The notes beneath the pieces are model-generated. The model was not told where the DNA came from and made no database searches. It worked only from the letters and a program-made list of their open reading frames with translations. From Escherichia coli (GTDB taxonomy: Bacteria; Pseudomonadota; Gammaproteobacteria; Enterobacterales; Enterobacteriaceae): 486 nt of DNA. Made by a program: the position numbers and the translations under genes. This document shows positions 1-486 of the stretch, in pieces (the first letter of the stretch is position 1; each line of letters begins with the position of its first letter). The stretch lies in NCBI RefSeq assembly GCF_003334785.1, contig NZ_QOWV01000086.1, one strand, 5' to 3'.

Positions 1-167
1 CTGCGTAATACAGCCCGTCTGCCGTCTGGTTTTTCAGGACGGTTTTTCCAGTATCTGTAGCTGCTGCGATGAACCCCGAACACATGGCAGAGTGTGACCA
101 CAGGATAATGCGCTCTGAGTTTCCTGATTATCGAGAACTGTTCAGGGAGTCTGACATCAAGAGCGCG
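1..167 (-). pseudogene. insO: IS3-family (IS911-like) transposase OrfB, N-proximal fragment; 5' side interrupted by IS30, 3' side continues beyond window position 1
   Basis: Reverse-complement translation from 167 down to 3 gives 55 codons with no stop: [56 protein letters not shown]. This matches, from memory, the region of IS911 OrfB just downstream of the OrfA/OrfB frameshift site. No start codon or RBS for this frame is present before the IS30 boundary, consistent with disruption. The symbol insO is the E. coli K-12 name for the IS911 orfB fragment and is assigned from recollection. Confidence 0.7.
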
Positions 168-169
168 GT
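1..169 (-). mobile_element. Fragment of an IS3-family insertion sequence (IS911-like), truncated at position 169/170 by an IS30 insertion
   Basis: The minus strand translates without stops into a sequence with the N-proximal signature of IS3-family OrfB transposases. The sequence stops abruptly where the IS30 terminal repeat begins at 170. No IS911 terminal repeat is visible in the window, so this is an internal fragment. Confidence 0.75.
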
Positions 170-195
170 TGTAGATTCAATTGGTCAACGCAACA
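170..195 (+). repeat. IS30 left terminal inverted repeat (IRL), 26 bp
   Basis: TGTAGATTCAATTGGTCAACGCAACA lies directly upstream of the transposase gene. The matching right repeat is outside the window and cannot be checked here. Confidence 0.85.
172..177 (+). promoter_or_regulatory. -10-like hexamer TAGATT inside the IS30 IRL
   Basis: TAGATT matches TATAAT at 4 of 6 positions. In IS30 biology the IRL is known to supply a -10 element that combines with a -35 (TTGACC) from an abutting right repeat in (IS30)2 junctions. Here the upstream partner would be flanking DNA. The hexamer is seen directly; its function is inferred. Confidence 0.35.
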
Positions 196-218
196 GTTAT
201 GTGAAAACATGGGGTTGC

Positions 219-223
219 GGAGG
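219..223 (+). promoter_or_regulatory. Shine-Dalgarno sequence for the IS30 transposase
   Basis: GGAGG sits 8 nt upstream of the ATG at 232 (GGAGGTTTTTTGAATG), which is ideal composition and spacing. Confidence 0.85.
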
Positions 224-231
224 TTTTTTGA

Positions 232-486
232 ATGAGACGAACATTTACAGCAGAGGAAAAAGCCTCTGTTTTTGAACTATGGAAGAACGGAACAGGCTTC
301 AGTGAAATAGCGAATATCCTGGGTTCAAAACCCGGAACGATCTTCACTATGTTAAGGGATACTGGCGGCATAAAACCCCATGAGCATAAGCGGGCTGTAG
401 CTCACCTGACACTGTCTGAGCGCGAGGAGATACGAGCTGGTTTGTCAGCCAAAATGAGCATTCGTGCGATAGCTACTGCGCTGAAT
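232..486 (+). CDS. insI: IS30 transposase (DDE transposase, IS30 family), N-terminal 85 codons; 3' partial
   Basis: Frame 1 is open from the ATG at 232 to the window end: MRRTFTAEEKASVFELWKNGTGFSEIANILGSKPGTIFTMLRDTGGIKPHEHKRAVAHLTLSEREEIRAGLSAKMSIRAIATALN. I recognise this as the N-terminus of the E. coli IS30 transposase, which carries the helix-turn-helix DNA-binding region that recognises the IS30 ends. A strong RBS precedes it and it lies immediately inside the IRL. It is missing from the supplied ORF track because no stop codon falls in the window. Confidence 0.95.
   Translation, partial: MRRTFTAEEKASVFELWKNGTGFSEIANILGSKPGTIFTMLRDTGGIKPHEHKRAVAHLTLSEREEIRAGLSAKMSIRAIATALN

Follow-up and report, generated by a model that had tools for sequence, protein, structure and literature searches.

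Left junction of an IS30 element inserted in IS911 of Escherichia coli and its natural R52H transposase allele

Results

The 486-nucleotide stretch of Escherichia coli DNA analysed here, referred to below as the window, carries the left end of IS30, a well-known E. coli insertion sequence that has entered an older IS911 element (Table 1). With a probability of about 0.96, we propose that it holds the left junction of a canonical IS30 inside IS911 and that this copy represents a natural R52H allele of IS30. Over positions 170-486, 316 of 317 bases are the same as in IS30D of E. coli K-12 MG1655, the sole mismatch being G386A (A in the window, G in K-12), which changes Arg52 to His. The element opens with a complete left terminal inverted repeat (IRL, TGTAGATTCAATTGGTCAACGCAACA at 170-195), followed by a leader with a ribosome-binding site and by the first 85 codons of the transposase, which translate without a stop from MRRTFTAEEK to AIATALN (in full, MRRTFTAEEKASVFELWKNGTGFSEIANILGSKPGTIFTMLRDTGGIKPHEHKRAVAHLTLSEREEIRAGLSAKMSIRAIATALN). 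An earlier note on this DNA had described the 5' end of an IS30 copy as undamaged, with 85 open codons behind an intact ribosome-binding site and IRL, and the comparison bears it out on each of these points: the IRL, the GGAGG and codons 1-85 all match K-12 IS30D save for G386A. The same note had suspected that a histidine in HEHKRAV departs from the reference. Alignment to the reference IS30 transposase shows that this substitution is real and that the N-terminus is otherwise not diverged, but the residue is number 52 and not 51 (H50-E51-H52). A random frame of 85 codons would remain open with a chance of ~1.7% ((61/64)^85), and it is the identity to IS30, above openness by chance, that is decisive for this frame.

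Table 1. Features of the 486-nucleotide window. Positions count from the first base of the window; L001 is the corresponding locus of strain ATCC 11775.
Feature	Position	Strand	Remarks
IS911 (IS3 family) fragment	1..169	-	orfA 3' end and overlapping orfB 5' part, from minus-strand translations
Target-site duplication GT, left copy	168..169		2 bp; GT before IRL, GT after IRR in L001
IS30 left terminal inverted repeat (IRL)	170..195	+	26 bp, complete; same as K-12 IS30D IRL
TAGATT, putative -10 hexamer of Pjunc	172..177	+	within IRL; would need an abutted IRR with a 2-bp spacer
Shine-Dalgarno GGAGG	219..223	+	8 nt before the ATG at 232; same in K-12 IS30D
IS30 transposase (ORF-A / InsI), codons 1-85	232..486	+	stop-free; 383 aa in L001
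HTH1, residues 6-41	247..354	+	complete; Pfam HTH_38 E=0.001 (85-aa fragment), 0.014 (full protein)
Codon 52, CAT (His)	385..387	+	K-12 CGT (Arg); SNP at base 386; linker between the two HTH motifs
H-HTH2, first part, residues 58-85	403..486	+	Pfam HTH_38 E=9.6e-9; cut by the window end

When the 486 bases were compared by megablast with 5426 complete E. coli genomes, 778 genomes showed a match to 80% or more of the window, and at least 30 E. coli chromosomes among the matches listed were 100% identical to it over its full length, including the type strain ATCC 11775, S88, ML35 and MS7163. All of the 30 identical matches listed (30/30) bear the annotation 'IS30-like element IS30 family transposase', in a listing that carries no pseudogene flags. 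The IS30 element seen here is already known: both this natural allele and its position in the chromosome are common.

The rest of the element can be read in genomes that share the junction of the window. In ATCC 11775 (L001), the window corresponds to 4001-4486, between fecCDE on its upstream side and a tRNA-Leu gene and ahr on its downstream side; in strains such as this one, the IS30-in-IS911 nest lies in the fec / leuX island region. The annotation of this locus lists, in order, a minus-strand incomplete IS3-family transposase, the IS30 transposase WP_001254876.1 and then the remaining half of the IS3-family transposase. The IS30 element itself spans 4170-5390 (1221 bp, with two base differences from IS30D) and ends in a right terminal inverted repeat (IRR, 26 bp, 5365-5390) that lies beyond the window, pairs with the IRL at 23 of 26 positions, terminates in TGTTGCATTGACAGATTGAATCTACA and is followed by GT. 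Its ORF has 383 codons, no internal stop, and a product identical to K-12 InsI3 at 382 of 383 residues, the only change being R52H. Strain AHB10 has the same flank and the same IS30 left end, with one silent difference from the window (C405T) and an intact 383-aa CDS, again WP_001254876.1. Followed past base 486 in these two genomes, the frame thus continues to 383 aa with neither a frameshift nor a stop. From these copies with the same junction, we infer that the window copy is intact beyond base 486 as well. The alternative, that it is a pseudogene, sound for its 85 codons and frameshifted, truncated or interrupted further on, appears very unlikely: damaged copies of the H52 allele do exist in strains Z1323CEC0017 (L004) and 22F46 (L006, at the fec locus), but the left flank of the window is absent from both, the junction-sharing strains carry the intact protein, and all 30 identical matches listed bear the IS30 family transposase annotation noted above.

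Protein models identify the product as an IS30-family transposase. The full protein from L001 scores 277 bits against NCBIfam NF033563 (transpos_IS30, cutoff 80) over residues 89-364 and matches Pfam rve at residues 229-320. The NCBIfam scan of the 85-aa fragment returned no match because the transpos_IS30 model begins at residue 89, and this null result is therefore no evidence against IS30. Near-identity to IS30, 26-bp inverted repeats, a 2-bp duplication, a single DDE transposase ORF and HTH motifs were all found, and the element belongs to IS30 by each of them. No solved structure with detectable sequence similarity was found, and the single match of an Rfam scan of the window, IS009, is not meaningful (13 bits vs a gathering score of 117).

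The coding part of the window covers part of the DNA-binding region of the transposase. HTH1 is present as a whole; on the full protein, H-HTH2 extends over residues 58-98 (Pfam HTH_38, E=1.3e-18), and since the window ends at residue 85, inside this second motif, the DNA-binding region is not wholly contained in it. The description of an intact N-terminal DNA-binding region in the earlier note thus holds for HTH1 but has to be trimmed for H-HTH2, of which only about two thirds lie in the window. H-HTH2 reportedly binds the inverted repeats, and HTH1 is said to be needed for hot-spot targeting. In tblastn searches, the transposases of ISApl1, ISAba125, IS1394 and ISPsp7 showed ~38-41% identity in alignments that begin at residue 53-59. 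Because most IS30-family transposases align only from this point, residues 1-52 constitute an extension found in only some members; the HTH1 extension occurs in a minority of the tblastn matches, for example in homologues from Paraburkholderia, Falsihalocynthiibacter, Pantoea and Streptomyces.

The left flank, positions 1-169, lies just downstream of the frameshift heptamer of IS911 and was cut by the IS30 insertion. Its minus strand codes for the end of OrfA and, in a different frame, for the beginning of OrfB. It matches NCBIfam NF033516 (transpos_IS3) with E=5.7e-9, the score staying below the whole-protein cutoff because the fragment has only 55 aa, and it is labelled 'IS3 family transposase, incomplete' in RefSeq. 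An annotated IS911 that is not interrupted, in strain 2022N21-074 (L007), shares 99.4% identity with this flank. In this empty site, the left flank matches up to 1669 and the right flank from 1668. Because the two flanks overlap by exactly 2 bp in an uninterrupted IS911, the nest results from a simple insertion with a 2-bp duplication.

Two further frames cross the junction. The ORF at 69-275 (+ strand, 68 aa, ATG start) runs from IS911 antisense into the IS30 leader; it is a chimeric frame and no gene. The same verdict applies to the 81-nt partial 'hypothetical protein' pseudogene of RefSeq at L001 4155-4235, also a chimeric frame and an annotation artefact. For annotation purposes, the window is best labelled as an IS911 fragment, the IS30 IRL and the 5' end of insI, and the 68-aa ORF should not be called a gene.

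The two alleles at codon 52 were counted with 55-mers centred on base 386, searched by megablast in the 5426 complete E. coli genomes. Each 55-mer finds its own allele only, because with a 28-base word a central mismatch leaves no seed. The count for H52 (A386) was 524 places, spread over 372 genomes (18 of the places on plasmids, with a maximum of 8 per genome), and that for R52 (G386) was 6230 places in 3281 genomes (979 on plasmids, maximum 23 per genome); a rough overall count of IS30 copies with another IS30 55-mer gave 6805 places. H52 is the minor allele and accounts for ~8% of the copies. As it differs from standard IS30 by a single base, A386 might be taken for a sequencing or assembly error, but this explanation has a negligible probability and is refuted by the recurrence of the exact 55-mer, 524 times, across 372 complete genomes that were assembled independently; the allele also has its own RefSeq protein accession, WP_001254876.1.

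Elements of 1221 bp that carry H52 and are 100% identical to the L001 copy were found at three distinct sites, each with a 2-bp duplication: in IS911 in ATCC 11775; on plasmid pWP8-S18-ESBL-07_1 (L003), again at this IS911 site but with the orientation reversed; and in IS600 in NCTC9100 (L005). The presence of identical elements at no fewer than three sites with 2-bp duplications indicates that the allele has moved since it arose. An R52 transposase could have moved the H52 elements in trans; the H52 transposase is probably active itself. Two other H52 copies are damaged. In L004 (2313-3532), the element is 1220 bp long, is annotated as frameshifted and lies in a different IS3-family element; in L006 (2312-3532), it is 5'-truncated, with the N-terminus missing, and the left part of IS911 is deleted.

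Whether the substitution matters for function can be approached from the conservation of the residue. At the column of residue 52, four of five distant homologues that bear HTH1 have Arg and the fifth has Ala, in the context of a GG-x-x-P-x-x-R pattern. Because Arg prevails in 4/5 of these homologues, H52 need not be neutral, and a modest or mild functional effect of R52H is possible. One may go further and suppose that R52H, by replacing a DNA-contacting Arg of the linker, abolishes or strongly attenuates the function, so that the H52 copies would be relics passed on by vertical descent and moved only by R52 transposase in trans. The Arg of the K-12 reference and of the distant homologues points this way, as do the lower number of copies per carrier (524/372 = 1.4 for H52 vs 6230/3281 = 1.9 for R52, with the maxima given above) and the single chromosomal IS30 place in many carriers. 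We nevertheless consider this unlikely: identical H52 elements with fresh 2-bp duplications occupy at least three independent sites, one of them on a plasmid; a single genome holds up to 8 H52 copies; residue 52 lies outside both predicted HTH motifs; and Ala is found at this column in one of the five homologues. It is equally doubtful that the loss of the conserved linker Arg (GGI-P-x-x-R) sets apart a natural lineage of IS30 that is less active or chooses its targets differently. Should activity or targeting prove changed, R52H would be of modest interest to specialists of transposition.

The insertion sites of IS30 resemble each other. IS30 copies occupy the homologous site of three IS3-family elements (IS911, IS600 and the third one, in L004), in both orientations. 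We compared the target-site flanks of the window and its right-hand counterpart (window 150-169 and L001 5391-5420) with those in L003 (2290-2311/3533-3560), L004 (2295-2312/3533-3560) and L005 (2295-2311/3533-3560) and with the IS30D flanks of K-12 (L002, minus strand). The target lies immediately, or a few bases, 3' of the A-rich -1 frameshift heptamer (ATATTAAAAAARGCN-NN-), with a 2-bp duplication each. Outside the fec locus context, all four of the H52 insertions examined (4/4) are in, or derived from, an IS3-family frameshift window. A weak palindrome (AAAA.A.GC.[NN].GC.T.TTTT; 6-8 of 14 positions) emerges from the reconstructed targets, whose best match within phage lambda 33230-33350 falls exactly at 33290. 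The IS30 hot-spot consensus is a 24-bp palindromic sequence. The frameshift window of IS3-family elements looks like a natural hot spot for IS30, and these sites fit the known hot-spot specificity of the element. The repeated insertion of IS30 into this window is a tidy natural illustration of hot-spot targeting.

Discussion

IS30 transposes by a copy-out-paste-in mechanism (PMC9333248). First, the transposase links the two ends, IRL and IRR, across a 2-bp spacer to give a minicircle or a tandem dimer, and the IRL/IRR junction creates a strong promoter, Pjunc; the junction then integrates at near-palindromic hot spots or beside IS30 ends, hot-spot insertions leaving 2-bp duplications (PMC9333248). 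In such a scheme, the window would contribute the IRL, the untranslated leader with its ribosome-binding site and codons 1-85 of the DDE transposase, which encode HTH1, specific to IS30, and the beginning of H-HTH2, a family-wide motif that would bind the inverted repeats. Joining of the IRR to the IRL with a 2-bp spacer would assemble a strong promoter from TTGACA in the IRR and TAGATT in the IRL: read directly from the ends, the IRR-NN-IRL joint gives TTGACA - 17 nt - TAGATT, and positions 172-177 of the window would supply the -10 hexamer of Pjunc. The joined ends would then integrate in a near-palindromic hot spot, or by another IS30 end, to produce the 2-bp duplication. The three or more sites occupied by identical H52 elements, each with such a duplication, are indirectly consistent with transposition through a minicircle or IR-IR junction followed by integration. 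A scan of the window for sigma-70 and terminator consensus sequences found nothing, and no standalone promoter. CTGACA at 151-156, in the IS911 flank, stands 15 nt upstream of TAGATT at 172-177 in the IRL and resembles a near-miss hybrid sigma-70 promoter; the pair fails the scan because its spacing is under the 16-18 nt rule.

The element is the same as IS30 of K-12 (IS30A/C/D, InsI), from which its IRL, leader, ribosome-binding site and codons 1-85 differ by one base, and the K-12 elements have 26-bp inverted repeats and a 2-bp target duplication like the L001 element. Other members of the family are more remote: ISApl1, ISAba125, IS1394 and ISPsp7 share the DDE (rve) core and H-HTH2 (HTH_38), but have no match to the first ~52 residues (HTH1 and the linker), which make up most of the coding part of the window. 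Few bacterial insertion sequences have been characterised as well as IS30, and the finding of one more copy matters little.

The nesting of IS30 in IS911 is documented in K-12 (IS911A::IS30A, PMC9333248). In the K-12 nests (IS911A::IS30A, and IS911B/IS600::IS30D in KpLE2), IS30 likewise interrupts IS911, and the right-hand IS911 flank has the same sequence in L001 and K-12. The left flanks differ: in the window, the IRL abuts the orfA/orfB region of IS911, with GT on both sides of the element, whereas the IRL of K-12 IS30D (L002 7460-9007) adjoins an IS600 half-site (…AAAAAAAGCAAC). The IRR of IS30D adjoins an IS911 half-site (GTAGCC…), and its flanking dinucleotides, AC / GT, do not match. 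Judged from these borders, IS30D looks like the product of a rearrangement between two IS30 insertions and not like a simple insertion. Here, by contrast, the insertion is simple, its duplication is kept, and it lies in the fec-adjacent IS911 of non-K-12 strains.

Two minor variations were noted around this insertion site. The A/T run of the IS911 heptamer (L001 5393-5402) reads TTTTTT in ATCC 11775 vs TTTTT in K-12 IS911B and in the intact IS911 of L007, a length polymorphism of the slippery run. Strain fS25a (L014) carries an R52 IS30, which also has G20R, at the same IS911 site and in the same orientation, within a slightly different IS911 and a different neighbourhood. Its element is flanked by GT on the left and AC on the right (4391-4392, equivalent to L001 5391-5392), with no direct 2-bp repeat; repair of the 2-bp junction spacer may have left this footprint, or it may have arisen by rearrangement in situ.
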